From contig CAVSGI010000010.1 in NCBI GenBank assembly GCA_963727445.1, forward strand, positions 736,001 through 800,000: a DNA stretch of 64,000 nt, in the 5' to 3' direction. This document shows positions 46,360 to 62,375 of the stretch, in pieces. The position numbers and the translations under genes were made by a program. The number at the start of each line of letters is the position of its first letter. The first letter of the stretch is position 1. The DNA comes from an uncultured delta proteobacterium (lineage in GTDB: Bacteria; Myxococcota_A; Polyangia; Polyangiales; B10-G4). Below the pieces are notes generated by a model that searched no databases, was not told the origin of the DNA, and saw only the letters and a list, made by a program, of their open reading frames with translations.

Positions 46360-49300
46360 CTACCTCGTCCCCAGTAGAGTAACGAGCGCGTCGATTTCAT
46401 GCTCGTCCGTCACGTCGTCCCGCGCGCGATTGGCCTCGCCCACCACCCGCGCGGCGAGGATGGCAATCGCGGCGGCCGCCCGTGGGTCTCCCGAATCCAT
46501 GGCGTTCTGGACTGCCTGCACCACCGGATTGCGGCTCGTGAGCTCGTAGCTCTCGTCGTCGCCGCGCCGGAGGATCGCTCGCCGCCGGCTCGGGGTCACC
46601 GACACCGAGACCTTCACCTTCGTCTCGAAGAGGCGAGCGAATACCTCCTGTCCCACGCCCGGCGAAGGCGGTTTCGGTGCCGTCAGCGGTGCGGTGGAAG
46701 CGAGAGTTGGCGTCTCGACCACCTCGTCGAAGCTGACCGCCGGCCACTCGAAGTCGTCCGTGTCGTCGTCGTCCCCTGCGTCCGCGACAATCAGCGCCTT
46801 CGTCACAGGCGCCGGCATCAGCGCGGACCTCGCCTCGGGCGGCCACCGTCGCGCGCGCCAATCGAGGTGCATCAGGATGGCCCGCGCCGCGAGCAATCCA
46901 TCGTCGATGAGCCAGGGATCCTCCGCGGTCGGCCCCCCTTCGTTCGACTCGAAGGTGTCGCGCACCGCCTCCACCTGCGCGGGGCTGACGAACCAGACGA
47001 TGCCCCCCTTCCCCGTGAGCCACCGCTCCACGGTGGCGGGATCGAATCGGCCGCCCCACGCCGAGCGGCCATTCGTGCTCGCCCGGAAGGTCCTCGGCCT
47101 TCACCAGCTTCGCCGCGATCCCCTGAACGATGTGGGCGGCCTTCACCGGATCCCACTCGTTCGCCACGCGCCGCGAGAGGCTGCTGAGCATGCGGGTGTA
47201 GACGACCTTCGCGACCCGCTCCGCCGCGTCGACGTGCGGAAGCCCGTCGACGAAGAGACGCCCTTCGATGGGAAGAGACGCGGATCCTGCCCCGCGCAGG
47301 ACGCGACTTCCCCCGCGATCGACGACCGTCACCGGCTCGGGTGGGACGCCGCCGCTTCGCGCCCACAAGGCGCCGCGCACCGGAATCTCCACACCCGCGC
47401 GCCGCGCATCGGCCACGCTCACGCGCCGCGGCTCGAGGGCGTCGTGCGGGATCTTCACCAGCGAGCTCAGCGCGCGCTCCGAGGCGCGGCGCACCTCACG
47501 CTTCAGCGTTTCGAAAGCGTCGCCCTCCTCCAAGGCGCCCGACCAGGTGCGGTTGGGCTCGACCTGTGGCGCATCCACCACCGCGCGCGTCGGCCACTCG
47601 CACGGGTCCCGATGCTCTCCCAGCGGATGGCGTTCGCGACTCAGCCGCATCCCGCGATGCGCATCGAGACCTGGCCGGAGAGGCGCCACCACACCTTCGA
47701 TCCGGTGCTCGCCCTTGGCCTTCAAGATCTCCCAGGCCATGGCGGCGCTGTCCTCGCCGTATTCGAGGGTCAGGCTCTCCACCGGCCGACGGTTGCGGTT
47801 GCGCCGAGCCTCCGCATCCTGGCGCAGCTCCTCCGTGGCGTCGGTGAGGATCAACAGCTCGCCCAGGAGGTTCGTCGCCTCGTCACCGGAAAGCCGAAAC
47901 GCGTGGCGCTCGGGGTCGAGCGGGACCTCCGCGCACCCGAAGTCTGTCACGTACCACACCACGCCGAAGCGCTCCGACTGCTCGCGAATCGCGTCTTTGG
48001 TGAGCCAGATGCCCTCGGTGGTCTCGAAGAGCGGCAGCGCGTCCCCCTCCTCGTCGCCGGCGAGGACGCGGCCATCGAGCATGGCGCTTCGAATCCGCCG
48101 TTTCTCCTCCGTCGTGAGGAGCGCGACGCCGTCTTCGACGAGCCGTCGAACCAGCAGCGCTGTGAGCTGCTGGAGCCGCTCCGCGAGTGGGGCGTGCCCG
48201 GCGATCTTCGTCGGGTCACGGGGCACGTCGGGCGACTCGAGGGTCGCGACGATCGCTGGAAACACCGACACCGACACCACGTCGAGCGCGCGACCGCCGC
48301 GGCGAATGTAGACGCGGCTCGACCCCGAGTCGCTGAGGCCGATCTCTCCGGGACCGAGCGCCGCGCGGAGTCGGCGGTCTTTGCCGACCAGGGTGCTGAC
48401 GTCGTGCACGTGCGAGGCGTCCTCGACACCATGCAGCGTCGGCTTGGGCACCAGACCCTGGGCGACGCGCCTGCGCGACTGCAGCTGCTCACAGGCCTTG
48501 GTGACGTCGGCGACGTCACAGCCGGTGATGGCGCTGATCAACGCCAGCTGTCGCCTACGCTCCTGCCCTTCGGCGACGCGGAGCACGGGGCGGTCGAGGC
48601 TGTGTGGTGCTTCGCCATCGTCCGGGCCGAGCCACATCCCCACGTAGGTCGCCACGTAGACCTTCGAGCGCCGGAGGGCTGCGCGCGCGCCCACTCGATC
48701 CCCTTGAACCGAATCGAAGAGCGGCGCCTCCCCGAGGGTCTCGAGGGCCTTCGCGATGCGTCGTGCGCCCGGCCCATCTTCCACCGGATGGTCGATCCAC
48801 CAGTCGAGGAGGCGACGGGCGGCGTGGTCGACGCGCAGCGCGTCGGGATCGCGCGCAGCGAGCCCGGCCAACAGCGACGGGACCTGTTCGATCACCATCG
48901 CCTCGATCGCTTCGCGCGCCTTGTCGGAGACCTCGACGAAATCCTCGTCCGCTGCCATCGCGGTCGCCCGAACGGTGGCGGCGACCGGCGGGCCACCAAT
49001 CCAGGTCTTGGAGGAGAAGGACCGGTCCTCGATCAGGATCTCGAGGCTGCTCGACTCCATCGTCAGGCCCACCCGGAGCTTCCGCACGAGCGGCGACGAT
49101 GGCTCGACGTCGACGGCTCGAGCGTCGTCAGCGGAGGGAGGGATTTCGATCTTCGGCCGCTCGCGATGCACCTCGAGGCGCGCCGACCTGAGCGCCTTCT
49201 TGCGGCGCCGCTCGAGCTCCTTGTCGGCGTTCCTCGCCTGCTTGCCGAGCATCGCCGCCACGGCCCGTGCCAGGCGTTCGGGCGCGCGCAGGGGGTGAAA

Positions 49301-52027
49301 GCCATCGAGCTCGAAGTCTGCAGCGCGGTCGGGAGCGACGTAGCGGAGCGTGCCCGGGTGGAGCTTCTCGATCTCGTCGAGGCTGTGCGCGGCCTCGAGC
49401 CCGAGAACGAAAAAGAGCGGCAACGCGCGAAGACTCTGGCGAAGCGCTCTGGGTAGGACGGTCTCGAGCCCGACCTCGCCGAGCCGTTCCAGGAGCATCG
49501 GCACCACCTGCCGCTCGAAGATCTCGTCCGCTACGAAGAGACCCGGTGCGTCGTTGCCCACCAGGTGGGCCGCACACCTGCGCATCAGCATGCTCTCTTC
49601 GACCGAGAAGAGCGCCGGAACGAAGCCGCCCGTGACGCTTTGCCATTGCTCGTCCGGCACCAGCGCAGTCCCCTCGTAGAGAACCCACGCCGGAAAGCGC
49701 GTGTCGATCTCGTTGCCTTTGAAGAGCGTCTGACCGCAGTGACGGATGTCGACGATGGGCACCGTCACCGTCATGCCGATGGCGCCGAAACCCGCGTCGC
49801 GATCGAAGCTCATCGCGGCCCCGGTGACCGTGGCGAGCTCCCGCGCCAGGCTGTCCCCGTCGCGCGCGACCGAGAGCTCGCCGCGGTCGTAGTGTACGAA
49901 GCTCGCCGGCTCCGGCAGGAGCGCACGCAGGTATGCGCGATCGTCGGTACCGCCGGCGATCACCAGCCGCTTCGGCGGCAACCCCGGGCACGCACGCGAC
50001 GCGGCGCTCGCATCGGCGGTGAAGTACGTCCCGTGCTCGGCGCTCTTCGCGATCGTCTCCAGAGAGGCCCATCGCGCTTCGCCGTCGGTCGTCAGCGCCG
50101 GGAACACCTCTGCGCTGCGCAACGGTCCCGGAAAGTCGCGCCGGTCGAAGAGCTGGTGATGAGCGTAGATCGCCCCGCGCAGAGCGGCGCGCACCTCTTT
50201 CGACGCCGCCAGCTTCTTCGCGGAGCGGACCCAACGCTGCCGCGGCTCGCCTTCGGTCGTCGTGTCCCCCGCGAGCCGCGACGCCAGGAGCTCGGCCGCC
50301 CAGATGGCCGCCCCGATCAGCGCGCTGTCGACGGCGGCTGCGCCCTCGTCGTCCCGGAGCGCCGAGAACGTCTCGTTCGGGGTCAACAGCGGTGACCAGA
50401 CCACCGCCTCGAAGGGCACCCGCGACTCGATGCGTCGCTTCGCGAGCAGGCGCCCGTCGTAGAGGTAGCTGACGGTCGCGTGCGCGCCCGACGACGTGAG
50501 GCAGAGCTCGCCTTCGAGGGCGGGCATGGTGAAGAAGTGCGGCGACAGCGCGCTCCCATCCGTGACGCGCTCCGGCAGGTCCGCGAGCGGGATGGAGAGC
50601 AGCTGCCCCTCGGCCTCGCGCACCACGCCTTCGTGAACCGGGTACCGCAGGTATCTCAGGCGCGCGAGGCGGCTCCGCTCTGCAGTGGCGATGCGGGGCG
50701 CGACGTCTTCGAGCTCCGTGTGGGCGAGGAGGATCTCCACCGCATCGCCCGGCCGCACCCAGATCAGGTCGAAGAGCCACTCCGCCAGGCGCTCGTCGAG
50801 GGGCTCCTCGCCGCGATAGACGAAGGCCGAGTGGTGCGCCGCTGCGGCGACCTCCGACAGCGTGCGCGGGTTACCGAACGCATCTCGCAGGAGTGGAAGC
50901 TCGAGGAGCGGAGCGAGTGGACCCGAGACGAGCCCGCCCACGTGCGCGCGAAAATCGGTGACGCCCACCGCGGAAGCGAGGAGGGCGAAGGCGCTCCGTT
51001 CGAGCTCCGCCCGCCCGTGCGCGGACCACTCGAGCGTCGGCTCGGGTCCCAGCTCGCCGGCGATTTTTTCGACCAGCTCCGCGAACACCTCGGAGGCGCG
51101 GGCCTCTGCCTGCGCGATCGGCGCGTCGTCTCGCCGCACTTCGGAGCGCGAGGCGTTGGTCGGCAGGCGGTCCGCGTCGACCGAAACGCGGATCGGAACC
51201 GCCTGGTAGACGGAGATACCGAGCTCGATGGGATGGCGCGCGAGGAGCACCCCGCGCTCGCAGGCCTCGAAGATCGCGGGCCGGGCCCAGTCGGGCCGCG
51301 TGGCGGCGTGCATCAAGGCCATGAACCCGTCGATGTCGGGCCCGAGCGGGATGCGGAGCACGTCGCGGTCGGAGCGCGCTCGCTCGAGCACGCCGTCGCC
51401 GATGGCGATCGGCACCCGCGTGTCGTCGCAGCTCTCGCGGACCAGGCGCAGCTCCGGGGGCTCGCGTCCGGAGACGAAGGTCGTCAACACGCCGAGGTCG
51501 GGGAAGCGACGCAGATGCACCAGCACCCCCTTCGCCGGCGCAGCGAGGGGCTTCGCCACGTCCTCGGCGACCAGGTGGCGCAGCTTGGATGCGCCGGCGA
51601 GCGGATCGTCCTCGTCGACCTCCAGGATCGAAGGCGTGTAGCGCACGCGCTTCGTGCCCGCATCGGCGACGACGTAGATGTCGACGTACCGCGGCCGGAG
51701 GCCAAGGGCGGTGTTGATGGCCGTCGCCATCAGGCGCAGGTGGCGGCGCGCGGGATCGGCCACCGGATTGACGAGCTCGTCCAGGAGCGTCGTCAGGTCG
51801 TCGAGCTGGGGCGCCCTTCCCTCCCAGCTCACGCGCACGTCGTCCGAGTCGCCGGTGACGCGCAGCGAATCGGCGCCGAGGGTCACGCCCGCCCGGAGCA
51901 GCTCCAGGATCCACATCTCGGGCTCCGGCAGCTGATAGTCGCGGAGCTTCATCACCGCGCGCGCGGCATCGACGCGCAGGCTCCCCACACTGACCTGCCG
52001 TCCGGGCGCTGGGCGGCGCGCGGTCAA
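46360..52027 (-). CDS. Very large (~1888 aa) protein with degenerate HSP90/GHKL-like N-terminus (one +1 frameshift ~47046)
   Basis: TTG start overlapping the upstream stop; KLRDYQLPEPEMWILELLRAG; LPTNASRSEV; the 46360-47031 ORF continues it after the frameshift. Confidence 0.72.
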
Positions 52028-53655
52028 GAGAGGCTCCCCAGGATTCGCTCGACCGCGTCGCGGGTGAGCGCCTCGTCGGCGCTGGCGTCGAGACGGTCCG
52101 TGGTCAGGAGGATCGCGCGGGTCAGAAAGGTCGCCGCGACCTCGGGCTCCGCGCTCATCGCCGCGCGGGCGGCGCGGACGATCGGCGCGCGGACGTTGAG
52201 GACGAGTGGGCGCCGGCCGAGCAGGCGCATGGGGTCGGTGTCGATCTGGTCGCCGACCAGCCAGGGCGAGTCGATCTCCCCGCTCGCGATCCAGATGCGC
52301 CGCTCGCCCGCCCCCGAGAGCTCTCCGAGATGAATCGACGCCGGCGCGCGCGCATGTGCCTCGAGGAGCTCGCCGACCATGGAGAGCAGCGCATCGTCGG
52401 AGGGCCGACGCTCGACCGGCCGAACCAGCGTGTAGACGGCGCTCGCCGCGCGGCACCTTCGCCTTCGCGTCACCGAGGAGACCAACGCGAGCAGAGACTC
52501 CAGCTCGGAGGCGTCGAGACCGCGGGCGTCGAGGACCGCCACCCCCCGTTCGGCCAGGGCGCGCGTCAGCTCGTTCGCTTCGAGCGCATAGAGCTCCGGG
52601 GGGTGCTCACCCGTCGCGACCGACTTTCCAGCGATCGGCGCGAGCAGCGGAAAGGTCCAGCGCGACAGGGGCACGTCGATGCTGGACGGATCCATCACCG
52701 TGAGCAGCGCCCGGTGCCGCTCGACGTCCGACGCCGCCGCATCCGCCAGCGCATCGATCATCGCCCGCCCCAACTGATGCGACACCGCGTCCTGCACCAC
52801 GCGGATCGCGCGGTCGAAGGCCGCATCGCGCCGGACGTTGTCGCGGCTGAGCGTGTGCTCGAGGTGCGGGTCCTGAACCTTGAAGCTCACCGTCCCCACC
52901 AGGGGAGCGTCCGTCTCCCACAGCGTGAGCCCGCCGTTGAAGAACCCCGCGTAGGTTCCGTTCAGGCGCTTGCCAACGACCGCATGGGTGTCACCGCTTT
53001 GCACACTCACCGAGACCAGCGCGTCCTCGAGCTCCAGCGGGCGGTCGATGCGAGCCTCGCGCACGAGCTCGCCGCTCGCATCGAGCGCGACGAGCTGGAT
53101 CGGGATTCGCGCGTGCTTGCACCAGCGCACCAGCGCGACCTCGGAATCCACGATGAGCTTGCCGTAGGCCTCGGAGGCCATCGGCACGTGCAGCGTCACC
53201 GTCGTGCCGCTTTCGCTTCCCTGCACTTCGAAGAGCTCCCAGCTCTGGTCCGATCGCAGGTGCACGACGTGACCCACACCATCGCCCGTCGCCGTTCGCA
53301 CCTCCACTAGCTCCGGCGACATGGCCAGCACCGAAACGAAGCCGACGCCGAACTTCCCGATGGCGTCCTCCCGATCCTCCTTGCCGGATCGGAACAGAAC
53401 GAGGAGCTCCTCCTCGATCACCTCGCGGCTCATCCCGGTGCCGGCGTCGCGCACGGAGATCTGCGCCGCCCCCTCGTCCCATACGATCCGCACGGTGATC
53501 GATCGGCTGCCTGCGTCGATGGCGTTCTGGACGAGCTCGCGATAGAAGGCGAGTGGATCGGCGAACTGCTCGATCAGATCCGCGACGAGGCCCGTCTCCT
53601 CCGGCGCGGTCGATGCGCGCGCGTTCGGACCTCCGCGGTAGGGCGCTCCGGCCAT
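52024..53655 (-). CDS. HSP90-family (GHKL) ATPase
   Basis: FYRELVQNAIDA, RDAGTGMS, IGKFGVGFVS, SGTTVTL, LSRDNV. Confidence 0.88.
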   Translation of the reverse strand: MAGAPYRGGPNARASTAPEETGLVADLIEQFADPLAFYRELVQNAIDAGSRSITVRIVWDEGAAQISVRDAGTGMSREVIEEELLVLFRSGKEDREDAIGKFGVGFVSVLAMSPELVEVRTATGDGVGHVVHLRSDQSWELFEVQGSESGTTVTLHVPMASEAYGKLIVDSEVALVRWCKHARIPIQLVALDASGELVREARIDRPLELEDALVSVSVQSGDTHAVVGKRLNGTYAGFFNGGLTLWETDAPLVGTVSFKVQDPHLEHTLSRDNVRRDAAFDRAIRVVQDAVSHQLGRAMIDALADAAASDVERHRALLTVMDPSSIDVPLSRWTFPLLAPIAGKSVATGEHPPELYALEANELTRALAERGVAVLDARGLDASELESLLALVSSVTRRRRCRAASAVYTLVRPVERRPSDDALLSMVGELLEAHARAPASIHLGELSGAGERRIWIASGEIDSPWLVGDQIDTDPMRLLGRRPLVLNVRAPIVRAARAAMSAEPEVAATFLTRAILLTTDRLDASADEALTRDAVERILGSLS

Positions 53656-53742
53656 GGCGAGGAAGCATAATCCCTCGCCGCCATCGGTCGTAGGGCGCTC
53701 TGCTTGCCCTCCGCGCTCGGGCACCCCACACTCCGCCCTCCC

Positions 53743-54402
53743 GTGGAGCGCATTACCGAACCCGAGCTGATGGATGACAGCAATCAGGCGGCGGCGTACG
53801 CCGGCGCCGACTTCGACGAGCCGAATCGGCAGTTCGTCGAAGAGCTGAGGTCCCGCATCCCCGACGTGCCGACGATGATGAGGGTCGTGGATCTCGGCTG
53901 CGGGCCCGCCGCCATCCCCATCGACCTGGTCGCGCGCCACACCACCATGCGCATCGATGCCGTCGACGGCGCGGAGGCGATGATCGAGGTGGCGCGGGAA
54001 GCGGCCGAGGATGCCCCCGGCGCTGATCGGCTGCGACTGATCCACGGACTCCTGCCGGGCGCCGGGCTGGAGAGTGCGGCCTACGATCTCGTGCTGAGCA
54101 ACAGCCTGCTACATCACTTCGAGGACGCGTCGGTCTTCTGGAGCGAGGTGCGACGGCTGTCCTCCCCGGGTGGCAGCATCTTCGTCGTCGACCTCCGGCG
54201 TCCGCCCAGCCGCGGAGACGTGGCGGCGCTGGTCGACCGGTACTCGGGTGAAGAGCCGGAGATCCTGCAGCGCGATTTCTATCGCTCGCTCTGCGCCGCC
54301 TTCACGCCGGCCGAGGTGCGCAAGCAGGTCATCGCCGCGGGGCTCTCGCTCTCGGTGCAGAGCCTCGGCGACCGCCACCTCGTGGTCTGGGGCCGCGCTT
54401 AG
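53743..54402 (+). CDS. Class I SAM-dependent methyltransferase
   Basis: EPELMD, VVDLGCGPA, SNSLLHH, DLRRP, SLCAAFT. Confidence 0.88.
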   Translation: MERITEPELMDDSNQAAAYAGADFDEPNRQFVEELRSRIPDVPTMMRVVDLGCGPAAIPIDLVARHTTMRIDAVDGAEAMIEVAREAAEDAPGADRLRLIHGLLPGAGLESAAYDLVLSNSLLHHFEDASVFWSEVRRLSSPGGSIFVVDLRRPPSRGDVAALVDRYSGEEPEILQRDFYRSLCAAFTPAEVRKQVIAAGLSLSVQSLGDRHLVVWGRA

Positions 54403-56558: not shown

Positions 56559-57286
56559 GCGCGGCAGCGGAGGTTCGGGAGCGCTACCCGTACAAGATGA
56601 AGGACCTCTGCGAGCAGACCGGCCTCGCGCGCCAGGCGATCCACTTCTACATTCGCGAAGGGCTGGTCCCCGCCGGACACAAGACCGGTCACAACATGGC
56701 GTTCTACGGCCCCGAGCATCTCGAGCGCCTGTCGCTGATCAAGCGCCTTCAGCACGAACGCTTCCTGCCGCTCAAGGCGATCAAGGCGATGCTCGACGGC
56801 CGGCAGGGTCACTTCAGCGACGAGCAGCAGCGCTTCCTCGAGGCGGTGCGCGCCGAGCTCGAAGCCATGCGCTCCGCCGGTTCGGAAGCACCGCGACTGG
56901 TGGACCCGGCGCCGCTCATGGAAGCGCACGGCGTCACGGAAGAGGAGCTCGCGCAGCTCGTCGATCTGGGGATCGTCGGCGCGGCCGAAGGCGAGGACGG
57001 GTCCCTCTCGGTCGCGGCCGAGGACGCCTGGGTCTTCGACATCGTCGGCCGCATGCGCGCGGCGGGCTTCACCGAGGAGCGTGGCTTCGACGCCAGCCAC
57101 CTGGCCATCTACGCCGAAGCGGTGGATCGCATCCTCGAACGCGACATCGAGCTCTTGAGCGAAAAGCTCCCGGGCCTGCCCCCCGGCGTCGCGGCGCGCA
57201 TGCTCGAAGCGGGCATGCCGCTGGTCCACGAGTTCCTCGCGCGCCGTCACGCGCGCCGCACCAACGACTATCTCTCGAGCGTCTGA
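56555..57286 (+). CDS. MerR-family transcriptional regulator
   Basis: YKMKDLCEQTGLARQAIHFYIREGLVP; GTGA overlap. Confidence 0.88.
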   Translation: MSAAAEVRERYPYKMKDLCEQTGLARQAIHFYIREGLVPAGHKTGHNMAFYGPEHLERLSLIKRLQHERFLPLKAIKAMLDGRQGHFSDEQQRFLEAVRAELEAMRSAGSEAPRLVDPAPLMEAHGVTEEELAQLVDLGIVGAAEGEDGSLSVAAEDAWVFDIVGRMRAAGFTEERGFDASHLAIYAEAVDRILERDIELLSEKLPGLPPGVAARMLEAGMPLVHEFLARRHARRTNDYLSSV

Positions 57287-57300
57287 CAGGGAGCACCATC

Positions 57301-58554
<1,254 letters not shown>

Positions 58555-58588
58555 CCACCTCGCGGGGGCTGTCGTACCCTCCCGCTCC

Positions 58589-59131
58589 ATGAAGAAGAAG
58601 ATCGCGTTGGGGGTGGGCGTGGTGCTCCTCCTCCTGATCATGGGCCCGGTCATCGCCGCCGCCATGCGACCGGACGAGTACCGTGTAGAGCGCACCCGCG
58701 TGATGAGCGCGACGCCGAATCTGATCGTCCCCCAGCTCGAGAACCTCGAGAAGTGGACCGAGTGGAACCCGTGGATGGATCTCGATCCGCACGCGCGCAT
58801 CGAATACTCCGATCCGTCGTCGGGCGTCGGCGCCTGGTACACCTGGGAAGGCAACGACGACCTCGGCAAGGGCAAGATGACGATCACCTCGGCCAGCGCC
58901 GAGGAGGTCACCTACGACCTCGAGTTCATCGAGCCCTTCCCCTCCACCGCCGACGTCGGCATCACCCTCGAGGAGCAGGGGGATGGCACGAAGGTCACCT
59001 GGTGGATGGAGGGAAGGAACGACTTCATGGGCAAGCTCTTCGACCTCTTCGTGGGCATGGACTCGATGATTGGCGCGGACTTCGAGCGCGGCCTCGAAAA
59101 GCTCGAGCACGCCGCGACCGACGGCGGATGA
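58589..59131 (+). CDS. SRPBCC (START-like) protein with N-terminal membrane anchor
   Basis: WTEWNPW, GVGAWYTWEGN, IGADFERGLEKL. Confidence 0.88.
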   Translation: MKKKIALGVGVVLLLLIMGPVIAAAMRPDEYRVERTRVMSATPNLIVPQLENLEKWTEWNPWMDLDPHARIEYSDPSSGVGAWYTWEGNDDLGKGKMTITSASAEEVTYDLEFIEPFPSTADVGITLEEQGDGTKVTWWMEGRNDFMGKLFDLFVGMDSMIGADFERGLEKLEHAATDGG

Positions 59132-61715
59132 CCGACCGGCTCCTCATCGTCCACGCGACGCATCTTCTGTCGCGCGGGTATCTGAGCGTCTCCGACGACC
59201 GGCAGACGCCGGAGGGAGATCCCGCCGGCGCGCTCTTCGCCGCGACCAGCGCGCTGCGGCGGGCCCTGGCCTTCAAGGAGCCGGAGATGGCGGTGGCCAT
59301 CTTCGATGCGGACGCCGACACCTCGAGCTGGTCGTCCTCGCTCGCCTCGCAGCAGGAACGCTTCCCGGATTTGCTGCGTGCTCAGGGGATCACCGTGACG
59401 ACGGCCTCCTCGGCCGCCGACGTCGTCGCGTCCTACACGAAAGCCGCCCGCGAAACCGGTCACGACGTCGTCATCGTCGGCAGCGACAAGCGCCTCGCCC
59501 AGCTCGTGGGCCACGGCGTGTGGTGGTACGACGCCTACAAGGACGTTCGCTACACGCCAGAGCTCGTGAAGAAGCGCTTCGAGGTGGGGCCGGCGAACGT
59601 GGCGGAGTGGCTCTCGATGGTGGGCGACGACGACACGCTCCCCGGCGTGAAGGGCCTCGGCAAGAAGGGGGCGACGCAGATCATCGAGGCTTTCGGGTCC
59701 CTCGACGCGGCGATGGAGAGGGCGGACGAGGTCGAAGGCCGCCCGGGCAAAGCGCTCCGCGCATCGCTCGACGACGCGAAGCGCGAGCTCGCGCGCGCCC
59801 GCCTCGATCAGAGCGTCGCCCTCCCCCTCCCACTCGACGCGCTCGCCTTCGAGCCGCCCGAGGCTTCTGCGCTCGGTGCCCTCTTCGCGGAGCTCGGCTT
59901 CTTCCAGCTGCTGGAAGCACGAGAGGGGCGCCTCGACGACGTAGATGTCACCGTCTGCGCGGACGCGGGGTCGCTCGCCGATGCGCTCTCCGCGCTCGAA
60001 GGCGCGCCGGTGTCGATCCACGCGCTCATCGACGGCCCCACGCCCTTCGCCGGGCGCCTCGCCGGGCTCGCGCTCGTGAAGAGCGAAGGCCCGGCGTTCT
60101 ATGTGCCCTTCGCGGGACGTGGCGCGGTGTTCGACGACGTGCCCGAAGCACTCGCCACGTTCCTGGCCGACCCCGCGCGCCCGAAGGTGGGGCACGACAT
60201 CAAGCGCGCAGTCGTGGCCTTCGCGCGGCGCGGCGCCGCCGTGACGGGCATCTCTGGCGACGCGGGCTTCGCGTCACACCTCCACCAGCCCAGCAACTGG
60301 GCCCCGCACGATTCTCGACATCCTGGCCAAGCAGGTCCTTCACCGCCCGCTGGTCGAGGAAGAGACGGTGCGCGGCGTCGGCCGCTCCCAGAAGCCGTGG
60401 GCCGAGCTCGAGACGGAGGTCGCGGCCGCCTACGCCGCGCACCTCGCGCGGGCGGCGGACGAGGTGTGGCGAGAGCTCGCTCCGACGACCGACGAGGCGC
60501 TGTTGGCCGAGTACCAGGCCCTTCGTGAGACTTGCGAACGCATGGAGCGGTCGGGTATCGCAGTGGACGGCGCGGACCTCGCCACCGCAGGGGACGACTT
60601 CGACCGGATCCGCGAAGAGCTCGAGAAAGAGATCTACGCGCTCGCCGACAAGACCTTCAACCTCGGCTCCACCAAGCAGCTCGGCTCGGTGCTCTACGAG
60701 GACCTCGGGCTGCCGATCGTGAAGCGCACCAAGACCGGCTGGAGCACGGCGACCGAAGCGCTCGAGCGCATCGAGAACGCGCACCCCATCGTGCCGCTGG
60801 TGATTCGCTGGCGCACCCTCCGGCGGCTGAAGGACACCTGGGTCACGGCGCTGATGGCGAGCATCGCGGACGACGGGCGCGTACACTCGATGTTTCATCC
60901 GGCGCGTTCTTTCAGCGGACGCCTGGTCAACTCGGAGCCGGACCTGGGCCGCGTGCCCGGCGCCACGCCCGAGATGGCGCGGAATCCGCCACGCCTTCGT
61001 CGCGCCGCCGGGGCGCGTCCTGCTCTCAGTGGACTACGAGCAGCTCGGTCTCTTCGTGCTGGCGCATCTGACGAAGGACCCGGCGCTGGTCGAGCCACTC
61101 GCAAACGAAGACGACCTGCACACGCTCACGGCGGCCGCCGTCCTCGACCTCGATCCGGCGAAGGTGGGCAAGAAGGAGCGCCAGATCGGCAAGGTCGTGA
61201 ACTTCGCCACCTTCGCCGGCCAGGGCGCGAGCGCGCTGGCGCTCCAGCTCGGCGTCGACGCCGCTGAGGCGAAGGAGATCATCGCCCGTTTCGATCGGCG
61301 CTATGCGGTGGTGCGGGCGTTCCAGGACGAACAGCTCGCGCTGGTGCAGAAGCGCGGCTTCATCGAGACGGTCGCCGGGAGGCGCTGGCCCATCGGAGGT
61401 CTCACTTCGAAAGACCAGCAGGCGCGCGCCTACGCGGAGCGTCTCGCCCGGCGCGCCACCCACGAAGGCTCGGTGGCGGACGTGTCCCGCCGCGGCCTCC
61501 TGCATGCAGACCAGGCGCTTCGCGCCCGCGGTCTTCGCGCCGAGCCTCTGCTGCAGGTGCACGACGAGGTGCTCTTCGAGGTGGACGGGGATCAGCTCGA
61601 GGAGGCCGCCGAAACCGCGGCAGATGCGATGCGAAAGGCCTTCGCGCTCGAAGTCCCCTTGCGGGTGGGGAAGAAGGCGGGACCGAACTGGGCGGAGCTG
61701 CGACCTCTCGGGTAG
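59128..61715 (+). CDS. Divergent DNA polymerase I paralog (~861 aa; two +1 frameshifts ~60312 and ~60983)
   Basis: Full Pol I domain order: LPGVKGLGKK, FNLGSTKQL, SGRL, DYEQLGL, KVVNF, LQVHDE; many canonical residues substituted. Confidence 0.85.
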
Positions 61716-61724
61716 AGTTCGGCC

Positions 61725-62375
61725 ATGCGCACGTTCGTCTCCCTCGCACTGGCGCTCGCCGCCCTCTCGACCGCCGCCTCAGCCCAGGCACAGAGCGGAG
61801 AAGACCGCCCTCCCTTTCGGGACGGTGTTCGCGTCGGAGGCGGCATGGTGACGGGCTTCGCCGGACAGCTCCACCTCGACTACGAAAACCTGCCCGACAC
61901 GGACGACGATCTCCTCGCCACGGTCGGCTTCGACGTCTTCGCCGAGTACGCGTTCATGCGCTACCTGGCGCTCGGTGCGCGGTCGAGCCTCGTCTGGTGG
62001 AACGCCGAGACCTTCGACAACGCGGGGAACGGACGCAGCTTCCTGTGGACGCTCGACATCCAACCGAAGGTTCGCTTCCCCTTCGCCCTCGCGGATTTCG
62101 GGGCGGAGGTGTTCCTCGCACTCCCGCTCGGCCTCACCGTCAGCGTGCCCAATCGGGACATCCTGGGCGATCCGAACGTAGCGCCCGGTTTCAATCTCGC
62201 GATCATGGGCGGGTTCGCGCTGTGGTTCACCGAGCAGATCGGCGCCTACACCCAGGTCGGCTGGCAATGGCATTGGGCCCGCCACCAGTTCACCAGCGGT
62301 CTGGCGTCCGGGGTCGACGTCAACGCGCGCATCAGCCAGCTCCGCTGGACCTTCGGCCTGACCGTCGCCCTCTGA
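61725..62375 (+). CDS. Outer-membrane beta-barrel protein
   Basis: Signal peptide (AQA), alternating amphipathic strands, C-terminal WTFGLTVAL. Confidence 0.75.
   Translation: MRTFVSLALALAALSTAASAQAQSGEDRPPFRDGVRVGGGMVTGFAGQLHLDYENLPDTDDDLLATVGFDVFAEYAFMRYLALGARSSLVWWNAETFDNAGNGRSFLWTLDIQPKVRFPFALADFGAEVFLALPLGLTVSVPNRDILGDPNVAPGFNLAIMGGFALWFTEQIGAYTQVGWQWHWARHQFTSGLASGVDVNARISQLRWTFGLTVAL

Follow-up and report, generated by a model that had tools for sequence, protein, structure and literature searches.

The DNA analysed here, a window of 64,000 nucleotides from an uncultured delta proteobacterium of the order Polyangiales (contig CAVSGI010000010.1, positions 736,001 to 800,000), encodes on its forward strand, between window positions 59128 and 61715, a full-length protein of the DNA polymerase I (Pol I) type, which is spread over three reading frames and ends with a TAG stop codon (61713-61715). 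The gene belongs to a conserved lineage of accessory family A polymerases that occurs in Myxococcota beside the housekeeping polA, and in this lineage an intact catalytic and triphosphate-binding core is combined with a fixed small residue, Gly, at the position of the sugar steric gate. There is a somewhat better than even chance that the enzyme is a polymerase tolerant of ribonucleoside triphosphates (rNTPs), which would lay ribonucleotide-containing patches in gap filling or repair; incorporation of rNTPs, tailing and low fidelity are all suggested by the biochemistry of mutant enzymes.

Assignment to family A is supported by profile searches. The Pfam profile DNA_pol_A matches the window protein in two pieces, with E-values of 8.6e-32 (110.9 bits) and 8.7e-57 (193.2 bits; cut-off 34.3), and a profile search of the own genome gives 212.7 and 111 bits; both the Asp of motif A and the Asp-Glu pair of motif C are present. 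The N-terminal part is recognized by 5_3_exonuc_N (E 1.6e-14) and 5_3_exonuc (E 2.1e-14), together with a weak exonuclease-like domain, DNA_polI_exo1, which scores slightly below the cut-off (E 6.7e-06). The protein has the three-domain architecture of Pol I, composed of a 5' nuclease, a 3'-5' exonuclease-like and a polymerase domain.

An initial annotation, made from the DNA letters, had read the motifs DYEQLGLF, RQIGKVVNFATFAG, EPDLGRVP, RATHEG and HDE in this gene, and all of them were recovered, in the sequence and in the translations, at the positions given in Table 1. Residue equivalences were obtained by aligning the intact ortholog of another genome of the order, G024, with HMMER to Taq polymerase (1bgx_T) and to Mycobacterium smegmatis Pol1 (Msm Pol1; 6vde_A). 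The Gly of motif A, proposed in that annotation as a steric-gate change, aligns with Taq E615, which is the steric gate, and with Msm Pol1 E689, and the Ala that it had placed at the Y766 equivalent of motif B aligns with Taq Y671, so that both assignments hold. The Glu gate of housekeeping Pol I (DYSQIELR) is absent from the window gene. The residues corresponding to Taq R659, K663 and F667 are unchanged Arg, Lys and Phe, while Taq N750 and Q754 correspond to Arg and Glu in the clade, and Taq Q582 and N583 to Gly and Arg. The Arg of DLGRVP aligns with Asn656 of Msm Pol1, which forms a hydrogen bond with a base of the primer in the minor groove (PMC7102940). The same source describes Arg733, Lys737, Tyr741, His713, Gln687 and Asp684 as the residues holding the triphosphate and the metal in Msm Pol1; all six are retained in the clade, with Phe in place of Tyr741, as in Taq. 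The residue following GRVPG aligns with Taq R587 and Msm Pol1 R660, a contact of the primer phosphate; at this position the window copy has Ala (60962-60964, GRVPGATPEM), and most clade members have Arg or Lys.

The substitutions are conserved across homologs, a check that the initial annotation had named. A polymerase-domain search with the G024 ortholog, of which the best 120 proteins (66-74% identity) were taken, and a second search with a divergent member, P0122, which supplied 45 further proteins, gave 165 homologs with 58-74% polymerase-domain identity to one of the two queries; D[YF]xQLG and NFATF[A/N]G are present in 165 of the 165. The polymerase-domain search with P0122 returned 787 clusters at E <= 1e-100, the best 120 of which were inspected, and the clade appears to comprise several hundred sequence clusters. 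In a MAFFT alignment of 106 full-length clade members and two canonical relatives, the changes of Glu to Gly, Ile to Phe, Tyr to Ala, Asn to Arg and Gln to Glu are each found in all 106 members, and 305 columns are at least 90% conserved. In a separate alignment of 89 sequences, which includes six from outside the clade (P0128, P0130, P0131, P0132, P0134 and P0139), the Asp of motif A (D622) and the Asp-Glu pair of motif C (D799 and E800) are invariant, in agreement with the earlier claim that both metal-binding aspartates are retained. The O-helix Arg and Lys are likewise without variation there, as are the triphosphate-contacting Gln and His, and conservation of the O-helix Phe reaches at least 90%. 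At the His position of motif C, the clade varies (H 68, L 33, V 5, A 3, with 110 of 120 sequences matched by the pattern). Members from other classes of the phylum, with 57-61% identity, keep the same motifs, and the named homologs among the best matches listed all come from Myxococcota-type metagenome-assembled genomes. A reading of the substitutions as decay was rejected, since they are conserved across the clade.

The nuclease domains have also been altered. In most members, the 5' nuclease has lost its first catalytic Asp (S 39, H 37, L 12, D 6 of 106 at this position), the change of the canonical DKD to DKR is found in 106 of 106 members, and the EADD block shows no conservation; the helix-hairpin-helix DNA-binding part (GVKGIGKKGA) is conserved. 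The conserved acidic metal ligands of an active 5' nuclease, as found in housekeeping Pol I, are missing from the window gene. In the 3'-5' exonuclease domain of the G024 ortholog, the positions of Klenow D355, E357, D424 and D501 are occupied by Ala, Ile, Ala and Val. Judged by these residues, both the 5' nuclease and the 3'-5' exonuclease sites are predicted to be dead. Folding and structure searches were carried out on the intact G024 ortholog, which stood in for the frame-broken window protein. AlphaFold2, run on the 89-sequence alignment, gave a model with a mean pLDDT of 94.4 and a pTM of 0.87, for which the top Foldseek matches are full-length M. smegmatis Pol1 and Taq, and sequence identity to solved structures of Pol I is about 28-31%. 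Superposition of the large-fragment part on the Bst large fragment gives TM-scores, normalised to the target, of 0.87-0.90. According to the model, the whole three-domain Pol I fold is kept.

The loss of two of the three ancestral activities raises the question of a catalytically weak or inactive homolog with a DNA-binding or scaffolding role, comparable to ImuB among the Y-family homologs; the change of Gln to Glu in motif 6 and the variable His of motif C could likewise cripple catalysis. However, such a role is quite improbable, as the metal ligands and the triphosphate-binding residues are conserved to the degree reported above, and the 305 conserved columns show the pattern of a selected active site.

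The own genome (G000) contains a canonical polA on contig C6, with the motifs DYSQIELR, NTPIQGSAAD and TVHDE, and the possibility that the window gene is the only polA of its genome was rejected on this basis. This canonical gene (G000:C6:702632-703756, loci L001 and L033) has a frameshift near position 6612-6619 of L033, and its motif B, KTVNYAVIYG, has Tyr where Taq has F667. Within the order, family A matches were found in 39 of 41 genomes, G000 included, and the Gly-gate form in five of the 41 (G000, G013, G022, G024 and, as a partial sequence, G027), always beside a canonical copy. In line with the check named in the initial annotation, every carrier genome examined has, next to the clade copy, a canonical polA whose motifs are DYSQIELR or DWSQIELR and NTPIQG. 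By orthology, the window gene is not the single near-universal polA. Conservation and the coexisting canonical polA together support the earlier proposal of a specialised paralog, which is neither the housekeeping polA nor a product of decay.

Phylogenetic analysis was performed as a quick IQ-TREE tree of 78 polymerase domains, of which 19 belong to the clade, 13 are canonical copies of the order and 46 represent clusters; the set excluded fragments and three quarters of the distant representatives, and the root was placed at the midpoint, which does not fix the order of events. The clade forms one branch, with an SH-aLRT of 100 and a stem length of 0.48. Its sister is P0132, which reads DWSQLELR, KVVNFATLYG and RLARNFPVQGTAAD, and keeps the Glu, Tyr, Asn and Gln; P0132 is an intermediate form, RLAR and KVVNFAT being already common to it and to the clade. 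Together, the clade and P0132 fall within a second lineage with canonical motifs (DWSQIELR and NFATIYG), far from the universal polA of the order. Some large genomes of the order have this second canonical lineage as an extra copy next to the universal polA, namely G022 and G035 (contigs concerned: G022:C17, locus L030; G035:C54, locus L031; G022:C27; G035:C64); it also has NTPIQG, and the start of its 5' nuclease, LIDGSS, looks intact. G022 has three family A polymerases. Of the 150 nearest representatives of 50%-identity clusters, 123 have E at the gate, 7 have D and 6 have G, with 14 unmatched, and all six Gly-gate representatives are members of the clade. A search of the genome contigs for related loci with the single protein returned only the record of the query itself and three unrelated polymerases of low identity.

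The reading frame of the window gene is interrupted twice, in each case by one surplus base, and the orthologs of G024, G022 and G013 run through both break points in an uninterrupted frame. A contig of 151 bases from a soil metagenome run (X1) matches positions 60909-61060, and its sole difference is one base fewer at 60983; it has a depth of 2 and possibly derives from the same sample as the assembly, which makes it supportive and not decisive. Only one sequencing run, from a soil metagenome, contained a small share (0.14) of the sequence words, with no RNA run among the matches listed, and what runs X2 and X3 contributed were short fragments of other organisms, at about 88-95% identity; the run matches covered frameshift 2 only, leaving frameshift 1 without independent read cover. 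The housekeeping polA on contig C6 is likewise split between two frames, in an assembly of 9.47 Mb and 27 contigs that is 85.6% complete. Because the orthologs are in frame, the X1 contig does not have the extra base and the housekeeping polA is also broken, both frame breaks are probably assembly errors and the gene intact, with about 861 codons.

A segment of 3.9 kb, spanning the polymerase gene and most of both adjoining genes, is duplicated on contig C14 of the same genome (Table 1). The C14 copy has 36 indel events within the gene, 32 of which are deletions on the C14 side, and its mismatches with the window copy are distributed as 63, 50 and 118 over codon positions 1, 2 and 3. It retains DYGQLGLF, NFATFAG, RRATHEG and QVHDE, and reads ARIR in frame where the window copy has frameshift 2; it could be a badly assembled second gene or a decaying duplicate. 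This badly broken second copy, the predicted loss of both nuclease sites and the probable assembly errors go beyond what had been noticed in the initial annotation. The state of the C14 copy, two frame breaks within 2.6 kb and the missing read cover at the first of them would all fit a window gene that is a pseudogene in its own genome, with real frameshifts and the canonical polA alone in use. Nevertheless, this is very unlikely, given the X1 contig without the extra base, the equally frame-split sequence of an essential housekeeping polA, the incomplete assembly in so few contigs, and the fact that the window copy, apart from two single bases, keeps all conserved motifs.

Family A polymerases typically have a conserved Glu as steric gate, Glu710 in Klenow, and cellular rNTPs outnumber deoxyribonucleoside triphosphates (dNTPs) (PMC13492167). 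When this Glu is replaced in Taq (E615G), ribonucleotides are efficiently incorporated, with a stall after 6-7 nt, and an RNA primer is broken down, the 5'-3' exonuclease of the enzyme being the likely cause; the corresponding E2335G mutant of Pol theta yields RNA products of 95-200 nt (PMC10351887). By analogy, the clade enzyme would be a primer-dependent, templated polymerase with poor discrimination between rNTPs and dNTPs and probably with reduced fidelity. In gap filling or repair under dNTP scarcity, for instance in starvation or in resting cells, it may synthesize short patches that contain ribonucleotides or are mixed, and loss of the 5' nuclease would spare the RNA-containing strands from degradation. 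RNA-containing repair patches are indeed probable because both nucleases and the rNTP-excluding residue are lost. Loss of the 5' nuclease and the altered duplex-contacting residues would also fit an enzyme that tolerates RNA in the primer strand, although this is an argument and not evidence.

Several points weigh against such a role, in addition to the limited read cover described above. The Taq E615G enzyme by itself stalls after few ribonucleotides, and therefore Gly alone does not make an RNA polymerase (PMC10351887). The activity of the clade could be low, because the changes of Gln to Glu in motif 6 and of Tyr to Ala in motif B alter residues involved in catalysis and fidelity. Both residues are important for these properties in Klenow. 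The distribution is patchy, with the clade form in 12 of 401 genomes of an even sample of the phylum (E <= 1e-60; genome sizes 4.8-10.3 Mb), and thus the function is dispensable. A Pfam scan of the flanks at the window locus and at 11 further carrier loci revealed no conserved gene neighbour, the neighbours across the 12 loci including SRPBCC, OMP, MutY-like, GST, globin, kinase and ICMT; an operon partner was rejected, since the neighbours differ at every locus, and the genomic context favours neither repair nor another pathway.

The same active-site changes could be explained by an accessory DNA polymerase of low fidelity or lesion tolerance, which would prefer dNTPs and whose site would be opened for damaged or bulky templates or nucleotides. 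They cluster at the template-stacking Tyr, the motif 6 Asn and Gln and the primer-side Gln and Asn, both nucleases are apparently dead as in the low-fidelity actinobacterial APEX/PolA2 enzymes, and a canonical polA coexists. However, in family A, removal of the Glu side chain is known to act most directly on sugar discrimination, which is lost, and a Gly enzyme would need other means to exclude rNTPs, which are more abundant than dNTPs; this alternative is therefore held to be rather unlikely. Still less likely is a natural cellular enzyme that makes RNA or a mixed RNA-DNA chain from a primer on a DNA template. In this case, the Gly would open the sugar gate, the rewired duplex contacts would fit an RNA-containing primer and the dead 5' nuclease would spare the strand. 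T7 RNA polymerase has Gly at the position equivalent to the steric gate. If the reading as a natural RNA-making enzyme were true, the clade would show in a living form how a DNA polymerase of the Pol I type moves towards a single-subunit RNA polymerase, and would provide a ready-made scaffold for enzymatic RNA synthesis.

Upstream of the polymerase, the window contains genes for a MerR-family regulator, a ferritin-like protein and an SRPBCC protein, the stop codon of the last overlapping the ATG of the polymerase (ATGA); this arrangement is absent from the other carrier loci examined. A MutY-like gene (HhH-GPD, EndIII 4Fe-4S, NUDIX_4; L027:8708-10165, + strand) lies in divergent orientation beside the ortholog in G024 only. 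Elsewhere in the window, two long open frames on the reverse strand, 48002-52606 (1535 aa) and 52027-54108 (694 aa), overlap by about 580 bases in different frames, and may be another gene of the assembly split by a frameshift.

Table 1. Features of the polymerase gene and its surroundings, in window coordinates
Feature	Position	Strand	Description
MerR-family regulator	56630-57286	+	upstream of the polymerase
Ferritin-like protein, 417 aa	57301-58554	+	weak matches, below cut-off, to AurF and ribonucleotide reductase small chain
Duplicated segment, 3.9 kb	58481-62332	opposite strand on C14	matches G000:C14:3160-6976 (locus L032); 91.4% identity, 48 gap openings
SRPBCC (Polyketide_cyc2) protein	58589-59131	+	signal-like N-terminus; stop overlaps polymerase start
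Gene piece 1 (frame 1)	59128-60312	+	Pfam 5_3_exonuc_N, 5_3_exonuc, DNA_polI_exo1; frames from tblastn
His codon in IVHATH	59152-59154	+	position of the first catalytic 5' nuclease Asp (LIDGSS in canonical relative)
DKR for canonical 5' nuclease DKD	59485-59493	+	second metal-binding Asp to Arg; Taq ADKDL versus ADKRL
Frameshift 1	60312-60313	+	one surplus T of TT (gat t ctc); orthologs read PHD-L through
Gene piece 2 (frame 2)	60314-60982	+	rest of exonuclease-like domain, thumb and start of palm, including SGRLVNSEPDLGRVP
EPDLGRVP (versus DPNLQNIP)	60935-60958	+	Gly and Arg replace primer-strand-side Gln and Asn
Frameshift 2	60983	+	one surplus A of AA (60983/60984; cgg a atc); orthologs read EMARIRHAF
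Gene piece 3 (frame 0)	60984-61715	+	palm and fingers; motifs A, B, 6 and C
Motif A, DYEQLGLF	61032-61055	+	catalytic Asp GAC 61032-61034; Gly at steric-gate position GGT 61047-61049
Motif B (O helix), RQIGKVVNFATFAG	61179-61220	+	Arg, Lys and Phe kept; Ile to Phe 61212-61214; Tyr to Ala 61215-61217
Motif 6, RLARRATHEGSVADV	61440-61484	+	includes RRATHEG 61449-61469; Asn to Arg 61452-61454; Gln to Glu 61464-61466
Motif C, QVHDEV	61554-61571	+	Asp-Glu kept (61563-61568); His variable within the clade

A group of second Pol I enzymes with a Gly gate in myxobacteria is apparently undescribed. Czernecki et al. 2023 (PMC10201439) distinguish 19 family A clusters, and the classes PolA1, PolA2, PolA3 and PolA1-like are used in PMC12926913; in the comparison with published PolA classifications that the initial annotation had proposed, the group was absent from both, the available part of the former mentioning neither Myxococcota nor a gate other than Glu, and that of the latter, outside its A-family table, describing no such group. 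The full-text literature gave no match for "steric gate" together with "myxobacteria", and in related literature searches no family A enzyme that naturally lacks the Glu gate came up. The Glu gate is regarded as invariable in family A (PMC13492167), and taking it away is the classic way to obtain RNA-synthesising variants in the laboratory (PMC10351887). Here, a natural lineage has fixed Gly together with coordinated changes in the residues reading the duplex and with the predicted loss of both nucleases. If the enzyme does lay ribonucleotide-containing patches, some bacteria would possess a Pol I-type enzyme dedicated to ribonucleotide-containing synthesis, in parallel to mycobacterial DinB2 and LigD-POL and in a different polymerase family. 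The clade offers a testable case for the evolution of sugar selectivity, for what is needed beyond the gate residue, and for a natural answer to the processivity limit of Taq E615G.

Compared with housekeeping Pol I (PMC10201439; PolA1 of PMC12926913), the clade shares the order of FEN-like, exonuclease-like and polymerase domains, the predicted fold, the catalytic carboxylates and the triphosphate-binding Arg, Lys, Phe, Gln and His. It differs in having Gly for the gate Glu, Ala for the motif B Tyr, Arg and Glu for the motif 6 Asn and Gln, and Gly and Arg for the primer-side Gln and Asn, in the loss of the acidic residues of the 5' nuclease, and in being a paralog that coexists with the canonical enzyme. 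Engineered gate mutants, such as Taq E615G and Pol theta E2335G (PMC10351887), have a small residue at the same position and admit rNTPs, and the Foldseek list includes the Bst large fragment E658A with rCTP (PDB 4dqq and 4dqr), again a small residue at this position. These are single or double changes made in the laboratory, whereas the Gly of the clade is natural and fixed clade-wide and, unlike in the engineered enzymes, is joined by many fixed changes and by the loss of the 5' nuclease.

The actinobacterial APEX/PolA2 enzymes, as described in PMC10201439 and PMC12926913, resemble the clade in that the chromosome encodes them in addition to canonical Pol I, as a second family A polymerase whose 3'-5' exonuclease is dead and whose role is presumed to lie in repair or low-fidelity synthesis. 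Conversely, they have no 5' nuclease domain, are confined to Actinobacteria, and have Leu at B3 and a clamp-binding motif, while the clade keeps a FEN-like domain, predicted to be dead, resides in Myxococcota and branches beside myxobacterial Pol I-type sequences; with its 5' nuclease domain and its host, the window gene does not belong to APEX/PolA2. Nor does it belong to the single-subunit T7-like RNA polymerases, its Pfam domains being those of Pol I only and all of the top 50 Foldseek matches listed being DNA polymerase I enzymes of family A or fragments of them. Outside family A, human Pol mu of the X family is said to have a single Gly at the gate, as Ruiz reportedly described in 2003. 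Natural loss of the gate is also found in mycobacterial DinB2, of the Y family (PMC4176160), and in MsDpo4 (PMC6846668). The clade shares with these naturally rNTP-tolerant repair polymerases the sequence prerequisite only, a small gate residue; their folds and families are unrelated to it, and the proposed logic, that of a repair polymerase using rNTPs through a small or non-clashing gate residue, would be the same.

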